The notes below the pieces were generated by a model. The model did not search any database. It was not told the DNA's origin and saw only the letters and a program-made list of their open reading frames with translations. Source: a virus (lineage: Duplodnaviria > Heunggongvirae > Uroviricota > Caudoviricetes). From it: a stretch of DNA of 49,359 nt. A program made the translations under genes and the position numbers. How positions within the stretch are numbered: position 1 is the first letter of the stretch; each line of letters opens with the position of its first letter. Of this stretch, positions 1 to 46,566 are shown piece by piece. The stretch lies in IMG/VR virus record IMGVR_UViG_2875722834_000005, positions 1-49,359 of that record; one strand, 5' to 3'.

Positions 1-549
1 TCAGCTAGCTGGAAACTTTTTATACAGAGTTGAGAGCCCTACTCCATACGTTTTTGATACGCTTTGTCGTGATTCACCGGTTGCCATCCGCTCCCCCATT
101 TCCCGCCATTGCTCATCCGTGAACTTAGGCCTGCGACCACCAACTCGCCCTTTTGCCCTGGCTACGGCCAGCCCTGCTAAGGTACGTTCGCTATTAAGAT
201 CAGATTCATATTGTGCTGCGGAAAGGATGTTACGAAAGTTATAGCGGCCGCTGGCTGTTTTGAGATCCACGCCATCGGTAATACTGCGGAAGTTGATACC
301 CTTTTCCTGTAACTGCTGGAACATCAACAGCGCATGCAGAACGTTGCGGCCTATCCTGTCCAGCTTCCAGACCACCAGTTCATCCCCCGGCTGCATAGTG
401 GCGATCAGCCGTTTTAGAACCGGCCGATTCGATTTCCTCCCGCTGGCATGCTCTTCAAAAATTTTCTCACAACCCGCTGACTTGAGCGCCGTTAGTTGCA
501 ATTCAGTGTCCTGGTGGTTTGTTGATACTCGGGCATAACCGTAAATCAT
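1..549 (-). CDS. Serine-type DNA invertase (Hin/Gin/Pin family site-specific recombinase)
   Basis: 182-aa ORF; N-terminal resolvase motif GYARVSTNHQ with catalytic Ser, C-terminal HTH-like tail; size typical of Pin/Hin invertases. Confidence 0.8.
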   Translation of the reverse strand: MIYGYARVSTNHQDTELQLTALKSAGCEKIFEEHASGRKSNRPVLKRLIATMQPGDELVVWKLDRIGRNVLHALLMFQQLQEKGINFRSITDGVDLKTASGRYNFRNILSAAQYESDLNSERTLAGLAVARAKGRVGGRRPKFTDEQWREMGERMATGESRQSVSKTYGVGLSTLYKKFPAS

Positions 550-2825: not shown

Positions 2826-4094
2826 TCAGCTCGGGCTACTGTCAGCACCACCACCTTGTTGTGCGGCTTTCAGTTTCTGGTTGAACACCGAACTTTCTGG
2901 CATTTCGAGACGCAGGTCTATCCATCGCCCGGCGGGAATATCCATCGGCTCACCTGCGACGATCATAGCGGTTTCACTGTCAAAGCGACGTTTAAAAACC
3001 GACACGATAATGGTTCCGCCCTGAGTGGATTGCGTCTCCACAAAACACAGGCGGTTGCCATTTGAATCCTGTGGGATTTCAATAGTCCAGCCGTCAGCGT
3101 GTAGCCCGACAGCGCCACGTATTTCATATACGCCAGTAGCAATTTTTTCCGCTGTAACGCCTTCCGCCTCCATATTGGTCGCGGCACAGCCAGAAAGTGA
3201 AAAATCTTCGAGAAAACCAGCAGGCATGCCTCTGTGATCATTGGTAAGTCGCACAACAGGTGAGGCTTTTTTTATAAACCCGTTTGCATCAACAGTGGTT
3301 GTCAGATTGTCCAGCAACAGACGGGTTGTTGTAACCCCCGCAGTGCCGTATCCGGACATTACACGGATGCCCCTGGTAAAATAATGCACGCTCATGAGAA
3401 ACCACGTATCGTTTGCTCCCACCCATAATGTGGGCGCACTTTGTGGAATTTCATAGAATTCACCCGTCATTGGCAATATGTTCTGTAGGGTTGCAAGACT
3501 GAATCCCCTCATTTTTGCCACGACGTTATCAATCACAGATTCACTGGTCGAATTATATTCGGATACAGGAAATCCTTTTTTCAAACCAAGCCCTTCACGT
3601 GCGCTGGCCTGGGTAGTACCGCCAGTACCGCCCTGCTTTACAGACAATGCTGTGGTCAGCCCTTCCAGACTGGTGATGTCTTTATTTACCCCTTTTTTTG
3701 CCATGCTGCCAATGGAGGGGATGCTCATGCTTACACCGTTGATGGTGACCGTGATCATCTGGTTGGCTGTAGTGCTGGCGAACGCCTCCCACGCGCCAAT
3801 ATTCTCGTCGTACTCTTTGATGAGCTGTGACATGGCCTGCGCCAGGCCGTCGACTGAGATATTGTCCGACACAAGGATTCCATACTTCTGGCCGCTCAGC
3901 GCCGGGGAAACTGCTGGCGTAACCGTCATTGACGTGGCGCTGTTCACGGATGAAATCTGAAACAGCTGCACCGGGTTAGACATCACGATAATCGTCTGGC
4001 CAGCGCGGACCTGGCTGGCGGGAGCTGTCCAGTTTGTGCCCGTCCCGGTGGCGGTATTTCCATTAATGGCGATGGTGCCGGTGTTATAAAGCAT
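2826..4094 (-). CDS. Tail fibre / receptor-binding protein
   Basis: 422 aa; N-terminal region with the QGGTGGTTQASAREGLGL motif common to tail fibre and tailspike anchors; sits at the distal end of the tail module; start taken at the second ATG, which has a GGAG RBS. Confidence 0.7.
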   Translation of the reverse strand: MLYNTGTIAINGNTATGTGTNWTAPASQVRAGQTIIVMSNPVQLFQISSVNSATSMTVTPAVSPALSGQKYGILVSDNISVDGLAQAMSQLIKEYDENIGAWEAFASTTANQMITVTINGVSMSIPSIGSMAKKGVNKDITSLEGLTTALSVKQGGTGGTTQASAREGLGLKKGFPVSEYNSTSESVIDNVVAKMRGFSLATLQNILPMTGEFYEIPQSAPTLWVGANDTWFLMSVHYFTRGIRVMSGYGTAGVTTTRLLLDNLTTTVDANGFIKKASPVVRLTNDHRGMPAGFLEDFSLSGCAATNMEAEGVTAEKIATGVYEIRGAVGLHADGWTIEIPQDSNGNRLCFVETQSTQGGTIIVSVFKRRFDSETAMIVAGEPMDIPAGRWIDLRLEMPESSVFNQKLKAAQQGGGADSSPS

Positions 4095-4111
4095 ATTTTC
4101 TCCAGGCAATA

Positions 4112-4135
4112 AAAAAACCCCGCCGGAGCGAGGTT
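4112..4135 (-). terminator. Rho-independent terminator-like hairpin with U-run between lipoprotein gene and tail fibre gene
   Basis: Minus-strand CCTCGC-TCCG-GCGGGG stem-loop followed by TTTTTTTATT. Confidence 0.5.
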
Positions 4136-4154
4136 TATGTTTAAGCGTAGTGGG

Positions 4155-4388
4155 TTATTTGCAGGTTGTTTCGGTAAATGTATTCGCACTTACCCAGCGC
4201 CAGCTGAAAGGATATCCAGCCCGGTACTGCGTCTGGTTGTTTTGTTTACGCACACCGTAAATCTGAACCGTAGTTTCCTGACCGCCAACGATTGCAGTGC
4301 CGCTGCAAACTGGTTCCTGTTTCTCAATTACGCCAGCGCATCCTGTAAGCATGACAGCGCCTGCCATGCAGATAATCAGTTTTCTCAT
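4155..4388 (-). CDS. Small lipoprotein, possibly Cor-type superinfection-exclusion protein
   Basis: 77 aa with signal peptide and lipobox LTGC; located between the tip-fibre J gene and the tail fibre gene, as cor is in phi80/N15-type phages. Confidence 0.55.
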   Translation of the reverse strand: MRKLIICMAGAVMLTGCAGVIEKQEPVCSGTAIVGGQETTVQIYGVRKQNNQTQYRAGYPFSWRWVSANTFTETTCK

Positions 4389-4499
4389 TTTGATAGTATC
4401 CAGAGGAATTCAGTATCTTAGACGATACCAATACAATTCTGGTGGGTATAATTGATTGGATAGATCAATATTATGTTATTGATCGCTAAAAACGATCAA

Positions 4500-5174
4500 T
4501 CAATCATAGGCCGCTGTATTTATGGCGGTTAATGAAATGCCAGTATTCGTTCCCCCTCCAGGTGAACCTGCCCCAGTGGAGGTCCCCCCTGCGTTTATCC
4601 TCGTATTGGCCCCGTCAAACCTGCATGAAGAATAAGCATTTATCGTGTAGATAGTCGGAGGCTGGGTTGAATTATTCACAATGATGGTCTGACCCAACTG
4701 AGCAGGTGCAACGGCCCATGACCCGCTCAGCGTCTGGTCAATATTTATCCCGCCGTTTGCACCAGGCGTGCCAACCGTCTGCAGGTCTGATAGCACACGG
4801 GACTCATTAGTTAACACAAGCTTTCCGCTCGCATCCCATATTGCCAAACCCCATTTCGGTAATATCTGCGGGAATATGGCAAAAACGTACGCCGTTAAAG
4901 TGAAACTTTGGTTGTAGGGATTAACACCAGCAACATACACATTACCGCCGTTCCTGTAAGACATAACCGGAGTGGGCTGTGCTGTATTGGTGGTTTTGAT
5001 AAAAACCATCACTGGGTAATCAGCGTTTAAAGCGATATTTTGAGCAACCTGCTGAGAACTGCCATTCGCGGATGAATTGAAGGTATACTTCCCGTAAAGA
5101 CAGAAAGGCGTTGATTGTGGCGTTACAAAGGGATTCCCGTTATCCATTAATATCATCGCGCCAAATTCGGCCAT
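4500..5174 (-). CDS. Hypothetical tail-region protein (224 aa)
   Basis: ORF immediately downstream of J-like gene; Gly/Asn/Thr-rich; no recognised family. Confidence 0.5.
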   Translation of the reverse strand: MAEFGAMILMDNGNPFVTPQSTPFCLYGKYTFNSSANGSSQQVAQNIALNADYPVMVFIKTTNTAQPTPVMSYRNGGNVYVAGVNPYNQSFTLTAYVFAIFPQILPKWGLAIWDASGKLVLTNESRVLSDLQTVGTPGANGGINIDQTLSGSWAVAPAQLGQTIIVNNSTQPPTIYTINAYSSCRFDGANTRINAGGTSTGAGSPGGGTNTGISLTAINTAAYD

Positions 5175-5476
5175 TATGCTTTCTCCATGAAAACGACCAC
5201 CTCACATTTAGAGGCCGGGTAATTACCCAGGCCCACAGAAGAGGCTGCGGTTACGGTTATTGTGTTCCCTGACGCGACAATGCTCCTCCCTACGCTGTTA
5301 CCTCCTTCATCAAGTGAGAGCGCAAAACCGACCTTCATTCCTGAGGGTACAGTGAAAGACCAGCTGCCGGAGTTTTGTCCGGCGGCAAGTTGTATACGTC
5401 CAACAACGGAAACGGGCTTGATTCCGTAGTTGTTGGGGTTTCCCGAAGCATCCCAGGTCTGTATTCCATAAGCCAT
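5174..5476 (-). CDS. Hypothetical tail-region protein (100 aa)
   Basis: ORF directly after J; stop/start overlap with the next gene; N-terminus resembles that of the 224-aa neighbour. Confidence 0.5.
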   Translation of the reverse strand: MAYGIQTWDASGNPNNYGIKPVSVVGRIQLAAGQNSGSWSFTVPSGMKVGFALSLDEGGNSVGRSIVASGNTITVTAASSVGLGNYPASKCEVVVFMEKA

Positions 5477-5477
5477 A

Positions 5478-8400
5478 TCAGAACACCCCCGTTAATCGGC
5501 CAACCTGCACTCTCAGAACGTTGTTGCCATCCTTGACGCTGATTGTCTGGTTGGTCTGCTTCATGGCTCCCTCCCCAGCTGTCGAACCGTAGTTCTCAAA
5601 CGTCCCGGACTTATCCAGTTTCCAGCCAACAGAGCCGGCAACATAATTGTTCGACTGGATGTAATTGCCAATTTTTGCATTGCTTATGGTCCCGTCGCCA
5701 ATGACTGTATCCCTGATAATGGCCTGGCCATTCTGGATAACGAACGGCAGTGTTACAGTCCCGCCGACCATAGTAGTCACGGCGAAACGGTCTGCCAGGA
5801 AGATTACCTGTGACTGCATGCCGGAGGGTGTATTTTGAACCCCAATACCCATCCCGGCAGCGTAATACTGCCCGTTACTGGACACCCCCACCTTGATGTT
5901 ATACATCGCGCTGAGGTTACCGTTTACATCTGCTATAGCCTGTGCGTTGACGTTTATCGCTGCACTGTTTTCGCCTGATTTAACAGTCAGAGTGTTGATT
6001 TTTGTTGCCGAAGCCTGGGTGAAATCAGCAAGAGTTTCTGTCAGGTCCGTTGAGTTAGAGATATTGCCACCAGCTTCTGCATCCAGTGTGACCAGCGCGC
6101 GTGCGACCGCCTGGCTGGTATCGGCAATCGTAGTATCCACTCTGTCTATACTGGCACTGTTCCCGGCGTTCGTGGCGGTCTGCGAGCGACGGCTTACCAC
6201 CTGCGCCAGCCCATTCTGAATAATCGCGATTGCCGAGTTCTTCACTCCTCCCGTCATGCCGTCCATCGACACAGAAATCTCGTCGATCTTCACTTCGGCC
6301 TGAGCCAGCCCGTCAGCGTTCTCCAGGATGTCTTTCGCCTGCTGCTCGAGTTCGTCGGCATGGTTTTTAATTTCGTCAGCCATGCCAGCAATTTTTTCAT
6401 TGCTGTCCACCGCGTTCTCGATCAGGTCTTTGAACGTATCGGAGTCTTTAATTTCCTCCAGAATCACATCTGTGATATCGGAAACATCGATGCTGGCCTG
6501 TCCTCGCACCCATTCTGTGTACCCTGATTCGTTGCCGCTGCGGTCCACCAGCTGCGCGCGGTACCAGAAAATCTGCCCAGCCTTAAGGCCCATCTGCTGA
6601 TATTTGCGCTGCGGGTAAGGCACATCGGCCAGCAGCATGGCATCGTCTTCAGTACCGGTCAGGCTGTACTGAATTTCCGTCTTCAGCGTGTCGTCGGTAT
6701 TCGCCTGGAATCCCCAGTTCAGCTCGATACCGAACACCACGTTTTCAGAGGCGATAAAGCCAACCGGCTTCGGTGGATTGCCCACTTTACCCGTCAGCGT
6801 TTTCTCTTCTGAATAGCCCCATCCGGATGAAATTTCTGCGGCATTGATTGCGCGCACCCGCACCAGGTAGCGCCCGGCATAAATCCCCGGGACGTCGAAT
6901 GACGTGGTGGAGGTGCGCGGCACGTTAACCCAGTTCCCGTCATTGCGACGCCACTGTGCCTCATACGCGATAGCATTTTTCGCCTGGTCCCAGCTGACGC
7001 GCATGGTCTCAACGCTGATATTCTGCTGAACGACAGAAAACGAACTGATCGCGATATTAGCTGGCGGGGACTGATTACCGGGCGGAATTACACTTATTGG
7101 CCGCTGGTCGATAATGGCACCGGTATCGATACGCGCATATTTATCCGGATCGTGCAAAGCGCCAGCAATCGAATACGTTCCGTCATTATTATCCGTAACG
7201 CTGATAACGCGATATTGCTGCGCGTAAAGCTCTTCAGACTCGACAATCCACACCGATTCCACTGCAGGTGTTTCGCTGTATGCCGTTGTCACAGTGACGG
7301 CCCGCCCGTTTACGCTCTGTATCGTCCTGCTCTGCGATGCGCCGGACGGAAGGTTAACCATCAGACGGCTTCCGGGAGCGGCTGCCGAATCACGATCAAG
7401 CGTGATAACGCGACCGTTAACCGCGCTGATGCGCCCTCCCATCACTTTTCCGGAAAGCAGCTCATCGGCAACCGCGATGATATAACCAGGCTGTGGGATC
7501 TTACCGTCAAGACCAACATCGAACGACACGATGCGATCCTTGTTATTGGTCAGGATACCCCAACGTCCTTTGCGGTTTGCCTCTGACTGCCGGGTACAAC
7601 CAATGGCTGTCATTTCGAGCTGATTTGTGCCAAAGCGAGCAACGAGATCCTGCTCAAATACAGGCTCCATCGCATCCGCGTAGGCATTACCCGGATCGGA
7701 CCAGGAAACCAGTGCCGTGGTATAGCGGGTTTTGGTGGTGCTGCCCGAATAGGTAAAGCGCCCATTAACCACGTTTGCACGCGTGTAGCTGTAATCCACA
7801 TCGCGGGGCATATCCGCCAGCGCAACGATTTGATCGCCACCCCAGTACGTCATGCCCCGGAATATCGCCGCAAAATCACGTAACACGGTATAGGCGTCAT
7901 TCCTCTCCTGCACGTACACGTTACAGGTATAGCGAGGCTCAGTGCCGCTACCGCCTTTACCATCAGGAACCGGCTGATCGCAATATTGCGCGACCTGATA
8001 AAGCGTCCATTTATCAATATTGGCCGCCGTCAGGCGATTGCCCAGCCCAAAGCGGTCGCTCACCACCAGATCGTAAAAAATCCAGGCTGGATTATCCGTC
8101 CACGCCCACTTAAACGCCCCTGTCCATGTGCCGCTGTAGGTGCGGGTCTCCGGGTCATACGTATCCGGCACGCGGATAACGCGCCCGCGCGGTTCACAGG
8201 AAATTTGCGGGATGGAGCCGTTAAACTGGCTTGAGTCGAATTCGATGTACAGCAGCGCGGTATTTGGATAACGCAGTTTGGCGTCAATAACCTCTGTGTA
8301 GCTCTGCAGCGTCATCGTGTCGCCAATTTTCGCGCTGTTGGCATCCGCCGTAAGCTTACGCAGGCGCACCGTCCATGTACTGCCTGCCTGCGGTAAGTCG

Positions 8401-8933
8401 ATACGGTGGCTGCGTTCGTAGCCTGACGTGGTTTTCCCGGTGACGCTGGTATTAAGCACGGTCTGCCAGGTACCGCCATCTGTCTGCAGATCGATAGCGT
8501 AATTAATCGAATAGCCGACCAGATCGCCGTCGTCCTCCTGTTTAAACAGTGATGGCCATTTGAGGCGCAGACGAATGGCTGACAGCTGGGTGTTGGTAAA
8601 GGTATGCGTCCAGGCCGTAGCGCTTGACACTTCGGTGCCCACGCTGATTTCATTTTCTGTGCCGGGGATACCCTGAATATATTTTTGTGCCTGAGTCCCC
8701 GGACGAAATTCCCACGCCACGCCACTGAAGTTTTGCGATCCGTCTGCATTCTCCAGTGGCGTGCCATCGAGATAGATATCCTTCGCCGTCAACTGCCCTG
8801 CAAATTCGCCCTCTCCCAGTGCAACAAGAATTTTGGCTTTCGCTACGGACTGGAGATCGTCTGGTTGTTCAGTCGGGGTGCGTGAACTGGAGCTGCCGCC
8901 CTTGCGGCCTCTAATCGGAGTAGATGTAGCCAT
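5478..8933 (-). CDS. J: Tail tip attachment / host specificity protein J
   Basis: 1151 aa; N-terminal region matches lambda J; correct position after I. Confidence 0.9.
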   Translation of the reverse strand: MATSTPIRGRKGGSSSSRTPTEQPDDLQSVAKAKILVALGEGEFAGQLTAKDIYLDGTPLENADGSQNFSGVAWEFRPGTQAQKYIQGIPGTENEISVGTEVSSATAWTHTFTNTQLSAIRLRLKWPSLFKQEDDGDLVGYSINYAIDLQTDGGTWQTVLNTSVTGKTTSGYERSHRIDLPQAGSTWTVRLRKLTADANSAKIGDTMTLQSYTEVIDAKLRYPNTALLYIEFDSSQFNGSIPQISCEPRGRVIRVPDTYDPETRTYSGTWTGAFKWAWTDNPAWIFYDLVVSDRFGLGNRLTAANIDKWTLYQVAQYCDQPVPDGKGGSGTEPRYTCNVYVQERNDAYTVLRDFAAIFRGMTYWGGDQIVALADMPRDVDYSYTRANVVNGRFTYSGSTTKTRYTTALVSWSDPGNAYADAMEPVFEQDLVARFGTNQLEMTAIGCTRQSEANRKGRWGILTNNKDRIVSFDVGLDGKIPQPGYIIAVADELLSGKVMGGRISAVNGRVITLDRDSAAAPGSRLMVNLPSGASQSRTIQSVNGRAVTVTTAYSETPAVESVWIVESEELYAQQYRVISVTDNNDGTYSIAGALHDPDKYARIDTGAIIDQRPISVIPPGNQSPPANIAISSFSVVQQNISVETMRVSWDQAKNAIAYEAQWRRNDGNWVNVPRTSTTSFDVPGIYAGRYLVRVRAINAAEISSGWGYSEEKTLTGKVGNPPKPVGFIASENVVFGIELNWGFQANTDDTLKTEIQYSLTGTEDDAMLLADVPYPQRKYQQMGLKAGQIFWYRAQLVDRSGNESGYTEWVRGQASIDVSDITDVILEEIKDSDTFKDLIENAVDSNEKIAGMADEIKNHADELEQQAKDILENADGLAQAEVKIDEISVSMDGMTGGVKNSAIAIIQNGLAQVVSRRSQTATNAGNSASIDRVDTTIADTSQAVARALVTLDAEAGGNISNSTDLTETLADFTQASATKINTLTVKSGENSAAINVNAQAIADVNGNLSAMYNIKVGVSSNGQYYAAGMGIGVQNTPSGMQSQVIFLADRFAVTTMVGGTVTLPFVIQNGQAIIRDTVIGDGTISNAKIGNYIQSNNYVAGSVGWKLDKSGTFENYGSTAGEGAMKQTNQTISVKDGNNVLRVQVGRLTGVF

Positions 8934-46014: not shown

Positions 46015-46566
46015 ATGACCGATTACACCGGCAGCAACACGCCAGCGGATCAGCGCGACCTCTGGCGCACTCCGCCATCCCTCTTCGCTTCACTTGATGC
46101 TGAGTTCTTCTTCCAACTGGATGCCGCCGCAGCGCCGCATAATGCACTTTGCAGGAAGTTCATCACCGCCGAGCAGAACACGCTGGAAACGCCGTTGGTT
46201 GATTACCTGAGTGTGCCGGGTTACGTCTGGCTGAATCCACCCTATAGCGACATCACTCCATTCGTTAAAAAGTCCGCAACCGAAAGCGCCAATCAGATCG
46301 GCACAGTAATGCTGGTACCGGCAGACACATCGGTAGGCTGGTTCAAGGAGGCAATCCAGACCGCCAGCGAGGTTCGCTTCATCACCGCCGGGCGGCTGGC
46401 ATTTATCAACCCGGTCACCGGTAAGCCAGTCAGCGGGAACAACAAAGGGTCGATGCTCATCATCTGGAGGCCGTACCTGCGTACACACTGCCTGTTCACA
46501 ACGGTTGAGCGTGACCACTTAATGGCCTTCGGCAACAAACTACTGGCTCGACGGGAGGCCGCATGA
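46015..46566 (+). CDS. Phage-type DNA N6-adenine methyltransferase (Dam family)
   Basis: NPPY catalytic motif (VWLNPPYSD); size and layout typical of the phage Dam family. Confidence 0.75.
   Translation: MTDYTGSNTPADQRDLWRTPPSLFASLDAEFFFQLDAAAAPHNALCRKFITAEQNTLETPLVDYLSVPGYVWLNPPYSDITPFVKKSATESANQIGTVMLVPADTSVGWFKEAIQTASEVRFITAGRLAFINPVTGKPVSGNNKGSMLIIWRPYLRTHCLFTTVERDHLMAFGNKLLARREAA

Follow-up and report, generated by a model that had tools for sequence, protein, structure and literature searches.

A putative Dam/OxyR-type operator upstream of the superinfection-exclusion gene cor in a lambdoid prophage

The cor locus and its GATC triad

The IMG/VR record IMGVR_UViG_2875722834_000005 (49,359 bp; the whole stretch analyzed here, called the window below) is a lambdoid prophage. 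On its minus strand lie, in this order, a J-like tail-tip gene (5478–8933), a gene at 5174–5476, a gp23-like gene (4500–5174, encoding 224 amino acids), the small lipoprotein gene cor (4155–4388), an intrinsic terminator (4136..4115) and a side tail fibre gene (2826–4094). A 111-bp intergenic gap (4389–4499) separates the gp23-like gene from cor, and all features of this region are on the minus strand. The gap holds three closely spaced GATC sites, which we consider likely, on the sequence comparisons given below, to form the methylation-sensitive centre of a site that is bound by OxyR, a LysR-type regulator of the host, immediately upstream of the cor promoter.

The 77-residue product of cor carries the lipobox LTGC, matches the NCBIfam profile for Cor (NF047972) with 140.9 bits (E = 9e-42, cut-off 31) and shares 100% amino-acid identity with the Cor protein of phi80. 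The gene order, with cor flanked by gp23 and the gene for the side tail fibre, agrees with that of phi80, N15 and HK022. By profile and identity the protein is thus Cor, the superinfection-exclusion lipoprotein, and cor is the gene that we propose to be under the control of a switch. Cor blocks FhuA; lysogens are shielded from FhuA-dependent phages (T1, phi80), and ferrichrome uptake is lost. With a predicted promoter upstream (4451..4422) and the terminator downstream, the gene has the layout of a moron, and both the phi80 and the HK022 records label it as such. The terminator that closes the moron is also annotated in the mEp213 and phi80 records. At the other end, the stop codon of the gp23-like gene overlaps the start of the GATC-bearing module and coincides with the 5′ boundary of the cassette. 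The DNA of positions 4100–4560 is identical to that of HK140, mEp237, mEp213 and mEp043, 94.6% identical to phi80 and approximately 79% identical to HK022; this region is present in 45 of 5,426 complete E. coli genomes.

A preliminary description of this DNA had proposed Dam-dependent control of the lipoprotein gene from what it saw in the gap, and its observations were confirmed: three GATCs within 35 bp, overlapping inverted repeats around them, a location just upstream of a small lipoprotein gene and a Dam-family methyltransferase encoded by the prophage itself (PF05869/TIGR01712, 46015–46566). We number the module on the minus (cor) strand, with index 0 at the G of the first site (window position 4497). 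GATC1 (4494..4497, index 0) and GATC2 (4481..4484, index 13) are 13 bp apart, in the left and right arms of the distal half-site described below (HS1), whereas GATC3 (4463..4466, index 31) follows GATC2 by 18 bp, at the left edge of the proximal half-site (HS2). The palindromes are ATTGATCG/CGATCAAT, with 8-nucleotide (nt) arms and a 7-nt spacer (4478–4500), GATCAATA/TATTGATC (4463–4484) and ATTGAT/ATCAAT (4451–4469); in all there are four ATTGAT-type hexamers, in alternating orientation.

The density of GATC sites did not bear out the argument that had been built on it. The triple upstream of cor is the tightest in the window (the next-tightest spans 90 bp), but when the 173 GATCs were placed uniformly over 49,359 bp, a triple this tight arose in 57% of the simulated windows. 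Over the whole window, GATC is slightly rarer than in shuffled sequence (173 sites, with 207.5 ± 14.6 expected from the shuffles). It is the structure of the arrangement that goes beyond chance: the only 13-bp-spaced and the only 18-bp-spaced GATC pair in the window both fall within this motif, and the exact motif ATTGATCG-N7-CGATCAA occurs once where 4e-5 occurrences are expected. The last figure bears on the simplest alternative, that the triad has no regulatory function and is either a chance cluster or a conserved junction at the recombination boundary of the cor moron. In favour of this alternative, about half of such windows would contain three GATCs within 35 bp by chance, and the 5′ edge of an exchangeable cassette is exactly where the module lies. 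It nevertheless seems to us hardly credible, given the expectation for the exact motif and given that a recombination linker needs neither OxyR-like position-specific conservation nor a fixed distance to the −10 element, both of which were found across 43 sequence clusters (see below). The idea of Dam-dependent control therefore stands on the OxyR-operator architecture and its conservation, which support it strongly, and not on site density.

In the direction of cor transcription, the sequence of the region reads ATTGATCGTTTTTAGCGATCAAT-aacataat-ATTGATCTATCCAATCAAT-TATACC...TGGTATCGT. The predicted HS1 with its flanks (ATTGATCGTTTTTAGCGATCAAT, which is ATTGATCG-N7-CGATCAAT; 4478..4500) holds GATC1 and GATC2, and its 15-nt core ATCGTTTTTAGCGAT (ATCGtTtttAgCGAT; 4496..4482) agrees with the OxyR consensus ATAGnTnnnAnCTAT at 8 of 10 positions. 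HS2 (ATCTATCCAATCAAT, or ATCTaTccaAtCAAT; 4451..4465) is of the single-GATC type and agrees at 7 of 10. Each arm of HS1 is thus formed by one GATC (GATC1 or GATC2), and the left arm of HS2 shares sequence with GATC3. The half-sites are separated by a 16-bp spacer, and their joint score of 15/20 (8 + 7, N16) is the best in the window. A weak −35-like element (TTATAC/TATACC, 4445..4451, with TATACC at 4450..4445) abuts HS2, and an extended −10 element (TGGTATCGT, 4422..4430), with its hexamer TATCGT at index 70–75, is homologous to the −10 in the phi80 record FN582354. Transfer of the phi80 annotation and the position of the −10 predict transcription of cor to start at 4414..4416, with a 5′ untranslated region of approximately 26 nt; the −35, the −10 and the start in the window all coincide with those annotated in FN582354. 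With a start near 4414, HS1 would be centred near −75 and HS2 near −44.

Several other readings of the region were considered. A contiguous 37-nt OxyR consensus (four tetranucleotides in 11-bp steps) has its unique best match in the window here, at 16/20, yet was rejected: its third tetranucleotide is not conserved in phi80, Fraca, LAU1 and other cargo classes, and we therefore adopted the two-half-site N16 model, which all cargo classes satisfy. A promoter-like sequence within the module (TTGATC-18-CATAAT, 4499..4470) has a −10 that is not conserved in relatives and appears to be a by-product of the half-site sequence, and a candidate promoter in the end of the gp23-like gene (4532..4503) was set aside, as other cargo classes have unrelated sequence in the part that precedes index −4. 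The region has no Fur box (the best regional match is 11/19, while 93 sites in the window reach at least 12) and no consensus site for integration host factor (IHF), and an Rfam search of it for structured RNA gave only sub-threshold terminator matches. In a pap-type Lrp/Dam switch, two GATCs lie about 100 bp apart, each within an Lrp site, and the spacings of 13 and 18 bp do not agree with this layout. The region also lacks the arrangement of the Fur/Dam type of switch, known from the sci1 type VI cluster of E. coli, in which a Fur box overlaps a GATC.

Natural variants and a wider cassette

As an unbiased sample, 80 cor loci were collected through the Cor protein alone (at least 77% identity). 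All three GATCs are kept in 68 of these loci and in 41 of the 48 distinct upstream sequences, while the N7 and N8 spacers vary. The exceptions are informative with regard to OxyR. In the HK022 group GATC1 has become GATT and GATC3 has become TATC, with half-site scores that stay at 8 and 7; one sequence has GATA in place of GATC1, which gives a perfect ATAG arm (9/10), and another has GATA in place of GATC2. The lineages that lose GATCs thus keep or improve their match to OxyR, which parallels the CATC/GATG mutations made in gtr, where GATC methylation was removed and the OxyR consensus left unaltered (PMC2909390). The GATC-poor variants, which could serve as ready-made "locked" controls, are found in HK022 (L004, 291–340), HK75 (L257), E. 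coli YPE10 (L259), two IMG/VR records (L269 and L267) and N15 (L262, 2007–2056), the last with a degenerate module that has one GATC and a spacer 4 bp shorter. No module and no GATC was found upstream of the cor genes of the virulent phage T1 and of Stx2 phage 86. The cor gene of Aeromonas phage pAEv1818 (L006, 293–340) is preceded by ATCGACTAGGCCAAT-N17-ATCGTTGCAAACGAT, with three GATCs in a different arrangement and a score of 14/20, and that of Erwinia phage Midgardsormr38 (L007, 330–350) by TTCGATCGGAACGATCGAA, in which the GATCs are 9 bp apart and which does not fit the OxyR model.

Half-sites that match the consensus and abut the −35 would also be expected of an ordinary, peroxide-responsive OxyR operator in which the GATCs are incidental, and at classical OxyR-activated promoters the half-sites do abut the −35. 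We find this explanation improbable, because the arms deviate from the consensus precisely so as to form GATC (ATCG/CGAT instead of the better-matching ATAG/CTAT) and are retained, with the three GATCs kept in those 41 of 48 distinct protein-ascertained sequences despite drift of the spacers. In addition, reduced OxyR is reported to use this extended N16/17 spacing in the Dam-dependent systems (PMC2909390; PMC4856963), and the identical arms of gtr are methylation-sensitive in vitro (PMC2909390).

The module is not confined to cor. A BLAST search with the intergenic region alone found the same 40–45 nt in front of unrelated genes in other phages, such as a gene for a protein of approximately 75 amino acids in Yersinia phage vB_YenM_29.18 and one for a 120-residue lipoprotein in E. 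coli phage LLS. A scan of IMG/VR with the pattern GATCGTTTNNNGCGATCAAT yielded, together with the reference loci, 129 instances, and in 110 of them the third GATC, which this pattern does not demand, is present at +31/32 with an open reading frame (ORF) following. A second scan, of one genome per GTDB species with the pattern GATCG-N7-CGATCAAT-N8-ATTGATC, gave at least 120 matches. Among the matches listed, about 100 of 120 are in Enterobacterales (Serratia, Yersinia, Xenorhabdus, Pectobacterium, Brenneria, Dickeya, Rahnella, Hafnia, Enterobacter, Citrobacter, Buttiauxella, Pantoea and others) or Gilliamella; 11 of those listed are in alphaproteobacteria, with a different downstream sequence, and a few are probable contaminants. 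Upstream of index −4, where an ATT precedes GATC1, the sequence is unrelated between cargo classes, and the cassette is therefore taken to begin at this ATT.

For a sequence logo, the downstream sequences were clustered into 43 groups that were given equal weight. The informative positions that the patterns had left unforced coincide with those at which the OxyR consensus sets a base, namely T6 and A10 in HS1 and positions 4, 6, 10, 12, 14 and 15 in HS2. Eight of the nine unforced positions above 0.5 bit are OxyR-specified (hypergeometric probability approximately 3.5e-5), seven of them with the consensus base. The signal is sharper in the 30 non-cor gammaproteobacterial clusters (A10 0.93, C12 0.90 and T15 0.93 in HS2), across which the unforced T6, A10, C12, A14 and T15 of HS2 are conserved. 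The promoter elements keep their register as well: TANNNT starts at index 69–71 in 51–57% of the clusters, against about 2% at other positions, and a −35-like hexamer peaks at index 46–47, directly after HS2, with the consensus TtGAA at index 47–51. The distance from cassette to promoter element is thus fixed across the 43 clusters.

These positions also bear on the possibility that another protein recognizing ATTGAT/ATCAAT, either a different LysR-type regulator or a phage factor, binds here and that the likeness to OxyR is superficial. The four alternating ATTGAT-type hexamers and the presence of the same palindrome pattern in sphingomonads would suit such a protein, and T-N11-A is a generic LysR-type motif. 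Against this, the conserved unforced bases T6, A10, C12, A14 and T15 are OxyR-specific, and neither a Fur box nor an IHF consensus was found in the region. The presence of the cassette in chromosomal islands, and in phages whose early regions are unrelated, speaks for a host factor. An operator for a regulator other than OxyR is in our view quite unlikely, at about the level of an ordinary peroxide-responsive site or slightly below it.

The genes behind the cassette comprise, besides cor, the 120-residue lipoprotein of phage LLS (phrog_25729), a 40-residue membrane peptide (MTILLW...) and a protein of 47–49 residues (MELNQEEAE...), none of these three having a known function; the loci concerned are L014 (1500–1968, phage LLS), L025 and L037 (IMG/VR), L023, L165 and L210. 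In Yersinia massiliensis (L141, 5568–6020) the cargo is a secreted protein of 115 residues with a TonB C-terminal domain (TonB_C; PF03544, E = 3e-15), whose family is labelled "Rz-like spanin" in PHROGs. It may act as a TonB decoy against TonB-dependent phage entry, a functional theme that it would share with Cor.

In at least 20 of the 119 unique chromosomal instances, the cassette and promoter are followed by a short transcript with an intrinsic terminator instead of an ORF. The predicted RNAs are approximately 53–125 nt long, mostly 65–77 nt, and share ACC(A/G)GGG(A/G)A 12–22 nt after the predicted start; no Rfam family matches them. Examples are found in Serratia plymuthica (L137, 6097–6260), Yersinia similis (L170, 1921–2090) and Pectobacterium (L193, 3064–3215) and at L149 (2669–2830) and L198 (379–530). 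Some adjoin the genes for tmRNA, RybB or SraC/SdsR, and one lies upstream of a P4-type integrase ORF. These transcripts may represent an undescribed family of small RNAs under Dam/OxyR control.

Related arrangements were seen at other loci. Sphingomonads and other alphaproteobacteria (L139, L158, L172, L202, L208, L217, L227 and L244) carry several copies per genome of GATCG-N7-CGATCAAT-N8-ATTGATCGA.GGGATTTTT; the sequence downstream of these copies is conserved but different, and one copy lies upstream of a 76-residue ORF that is putatively purS, by its sequence alone. Mangrovibacter yixingensis (L185, L223 and L249) has, at three places in its genome, two cassettes in tandem (...ATTGATCGATCACTTACGGCGATCAATTTTTCAATATTGATCG...) in front of a gene for a secreted protein of more than 440 residues. 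In IMG/VR phages that lack cor (L026, L028, L043 and L097), a degenerate second copy is followed by a half-cassette, ATTGATCGTTTATAGCGATCAAT, that directly precedes the ribosome binding site of the side tail fibre gene (MLYNTG...).

Proposed control of cor

The known systems agn43, gtr, opvAB and mom are the models from which we infer OxyR binding, its sensitivity to methylation, the heritability of the states and the direction of control. In the scheme that we propose, an OxyR tetramer would bind the unmethylated or hemimethylated site and shield its GATCs from Dam, whereas full methylation by the host Dam would keep OxyR off. Each state would tend to reproduce itself after replication, so that expression of cor would differ between methylated and OxyR-bound lineages. 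Cells with high levels of Cor would have FhuA blocked and be resistant to FhuA-dependent phages; cells with low levels would have active FhuA and take up ferrichrome. A portable Dam/OxyR operator probably makes Cor expression methylation-dependent, and this expression is possibly phase-variable.

As to the sign of regulation, we lean slightly towards OxyR as an activator of cor rather than a repressor. The site abuts the −35, like OBS_D of opvAB (−43), and lies 5 bp further upstream than the repressing site C of gtr; the −35 itself is weak; and the GATC-poor, OxyR-intact lineage of the HK022 type keeps an intact cor gene, which would be sensible if the gene were locked ON. The placement of recognition and activation sites of LysR-type activators resembles that in the cor operator. 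Repression by OxyR, as at mom and agn43, is nearly as probable and would, by our own reasoning, fit robust exclusion by lysogens and the delivery of fully methylated DNA by the phage Dam.

This phage Dam is a predicted N6-adenine methyltransferase (PF05869, E = 1.5e-56; TIGR01712) encoded on the plus strand (46015..46566), in the early/recombination region near int. As its gene lies among recombination genes adjoining int, it is presumably an early lytic gene that is silent in the lysogen. The protein is 90.7% identical to that of Enterobacter phage ENT1, about 49% identical to the Dam of Stx phages and 42–47% identical to those of virulent coliphages; apart from ENT1, no phage Dam listed exceeds about 49%. 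Because the Dam is close to ENT1 only while the cor region is identical to that of mEp213 and HK140, the prophage is a mosaic of distant modules. Characterised members of the coliphage dam family methylate GATC, and relatives at 42–49% identity suggest the same specificity for this enzyme, which could then likewise keep OxyR off replicating phage DNA. The preliminary description had brought in the phage Dam and had not named OxyR; the phage enzyme is not required for our model, for which the host Dam suffices. The same prophage has a gene for a Hin/Pin-type DNA invertase (MIYGYARVSTNHQDTELQ..., 1–549, minus strand) that adjoins tail fibre genes (549–2826), which suggests an invertible host-range segment and hence a second, different switch.

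A number of points weigh against control of cor by a Dam/OxyR switch. The consensus score by itself is weak, with 0.43 hits of at least 15/20 per simulated window, and the case therefore rests on the identity of the motif, the register of the GATCs and the comparative evidence. The start site is a prediction, from promoter inference and a phi80 database annotation of unstated basis, and the N16 spacing of cor falls 1 bp short of the 17 bp that is described for gtr and opvAB as canonical for reduced OxyR. Both pattern scans forced most of the GATC-bearing positions, so that conservation of GATC in their matches is partly by construction; the protein-ascertained cor set alone is unbiased, and it consists of close relatives (at least 77% amino-acid identity). 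N15 is a classic cor phage and has a degenerate module, which implies that Cor can do without the switch. Some alphaproteobacteria, which are not known to have Dam, carry the same palindrome pattern in their genomes, so that hosts with Dam are not the only ones to have it. Exclusion by lysogens of cor phages is robust, and an OFF state would then have to be a minority or leaky. Finally, phase variation has not been shown for mom, an operator of very similar build (PMC2909390). In the full texts that we searched, which left many subscription papers uncovered, no report was found that links cor, phi80, N15 or HK022 with OxyR or Dam; a literature search on the letters of the motif returned unrelated papers only, taken to be primer matches, and papers on the methylomes of ST131 and O145 strains reported no site-level undermethylation at a cor locus.

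If control of cor by Dam and OxyR is confirmed, lysogen populations would hold phage-resistant and iron-competent subpopulations at the same time, and the bet-hedging logic of opvAB and gtr would extend, in E. coli, to an exclusion protein that blocks a receptor. Phenotypic heterogeneity would then be met in phage-susceptibility assays of such lysogens and in phage therapy directed at them. Strains with the phi80 cor region, such as XL10-Gold, offer a ready test bed.

The spread of the cassette points, more tentatively and in our estimation with somewhat less than an even chance, to a portable epigenetic switch found throughout the Enterobacterales, which temperate phages and genomic islands would place before accessory genes for phase variation. 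Its cargoes would be small envelope proteins, including Cor, the secreted TonB_C protein, tiny membrane peptides and transcripts of about 65–77 nt. Dam-dependent phase variation would then be a general hedge on the cost of superinfection exclusion by prophages, in the case of Cor between FhuA-dependent iron uptake and phage resistance, and there would be hundreds of Dam/OxyR-switched loci instead of a handful. The signature GATCG-N7-CGATCAAT-N8-ATTGATC, with a −10 element 35–37 bp later, would find candidate phase-variable loci across the Enterobacterales, including small RNAs without an Rfam match.

Comparison with known Dam/OxyR systems

Among the closest known systems is the gtr operon of P22 (and Salmonella), a phage-borne lysogenic-conversion (moron) locus that, like cor, alters the cell surface and phage susceptibility. 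OxyR binds the gtr half-sites in electrophoretic mobility shift assays, Dam methylation abolishes this binding and the operon phase-varies (Broadbent et al., 2010; PMC2909390). The three half-sites of gtr, OxyR(A) ATTGATCGGTAACAACGATCAAT, OxyR(B) ATAGATAAAAACTAT and OxyR(C) ATTGATCGCTTGTATCGATCAAA, are 17 bp apart. The motif ATTGATCG-N7-CGATCAAT of HS1, with its two GATCs 13 bp apart, recurs in OxyR(A) and OxyR(C), and both loci have an extended −10 and an operator upstream of the core promoter. However, gtr has four GATCs in all, with OxyR on the A and B sites in the ON state or on B and C in the OFF state, whereas cor has two half-sites (N16), three GATCs and no alternative site; by our own count, the repressing site C of gtr reaches 5 bp nearer to the −10 than HS2 of cor does and, unlike HS2, overlaps the −35. 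A further likeness is that the TTGATC arm misleads naive promoter scans at both loci. In the P22 record NC_002371 (21114–21141; L136, 5115–5142), the annotated gtrA promoter takes the TTGATC arm of OxyR(A) as its −35; the experimentally mapped gtr start is 33 bp downstream of GATC4 (PMC2909390).

In opvAB of Salmonella, a chromosomal locus that is not phage-borne, OBS_C and OBS_D are centred at −75 and −43; OBS_D adjoins the −35 on its upstream side and is occupied when the switch is ON (Cota et al., 2016; PMC4856963). With the predicted start, the half-sites of cor would be centred near −75 and −44, and at both loci the proximal site is of the single-GATC type and adjoins the −35. HS2 is of the same type as OBS_B and OBS_D, the latter with the sequence GATCGATATAACCAGT (PMC7708049). 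The output of opvAB also trades phage resistance against another fitness trait. Unlike cor, opvAB has four half-sites and four GATCs, its GATC-free sites A and C are of perfect consensus and OxyR moves between non-adjacent pairs.

The mom gene of phage Mu and agn43 have single operators. On the appropriate strand, mom reads ATCTGTATTACCGAT-N16-ATCGTCGTTTTCTAT and agn43 ATCGATATAAACGAT-N17-ATCGTTTTATTCTAT, against ATCGTTTTTAGCGAT-N16-ATCTATCCAATCAAT for cor; details of the mom and agn43 start sites are from our own reading of the sequences. Like cor, mom is a phage gene with one operator, composed of a double-GATC and a single-GATC half-site 16 bp apart, with GATC spacings of 18 and 13 bp (13 and 18 in cor), entirely upstream of its promoter. 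The orientation relative to the gene is inverted, and by our reading the distance from operator to promoter is roughly 15 bp greater at mom. Transcription of mom also requires the phage activator C, and OxyR represses it. The locus agn43 (flu), in a prophage remnant of E. coli (CP4-44), likewise combines these two types of half-site, with three GATCs, in one OxyR operator, and approximately 31 of 38 nt align by hand to the cor module with one gap. It differs in its spacer (17 bp against 16), its GATC spacing (19/13) and its cargo, an autotransporter adhesin. Its operator is downstream of the transcription start.

The likeness to mom raises the question whether methylation could gate cor through Dam and OxyR without heritable bistability, that is, without stable ON and OFF lineages. 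Such a gate, a sub-case of the Dam/OxyR control proposed here, could couple cor to DNA entry, replication or hemimethylation. It would be in keeping with a spacing and GATC register equal to those of mom (N16; 18/13), for which phase variation is not established (PMC2909390), with a single operator that lacks the alternative OxyR site by which two states are stabilised in gtr and opvAB, and with a Dam of the phage's own that would set the methylation state of virion DNA. On the other hand, agn43, where OxyR is a pure repressor, does phase-vary with a single OxyR site and three GATCs (PMC2909390). We judge a gate without heritable states to be unlikely, although clearly more probable than the alternatives weighed above.

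The half-site pair of cor scores 15 (N16); the validated operators score 14 for mom (N16), 16 for agn43 (N17) and 18 for each of the gtr pairs AB and BC (N17), and the 13-bp GATC spacing of HS1 is common to the double-GATC half-sites of gtr, agn43 and mom. In every sequence-level respect compared, the cor locus groups with the Dam/OxyR switches agn43, gtr and opvAB and with the mom operator.

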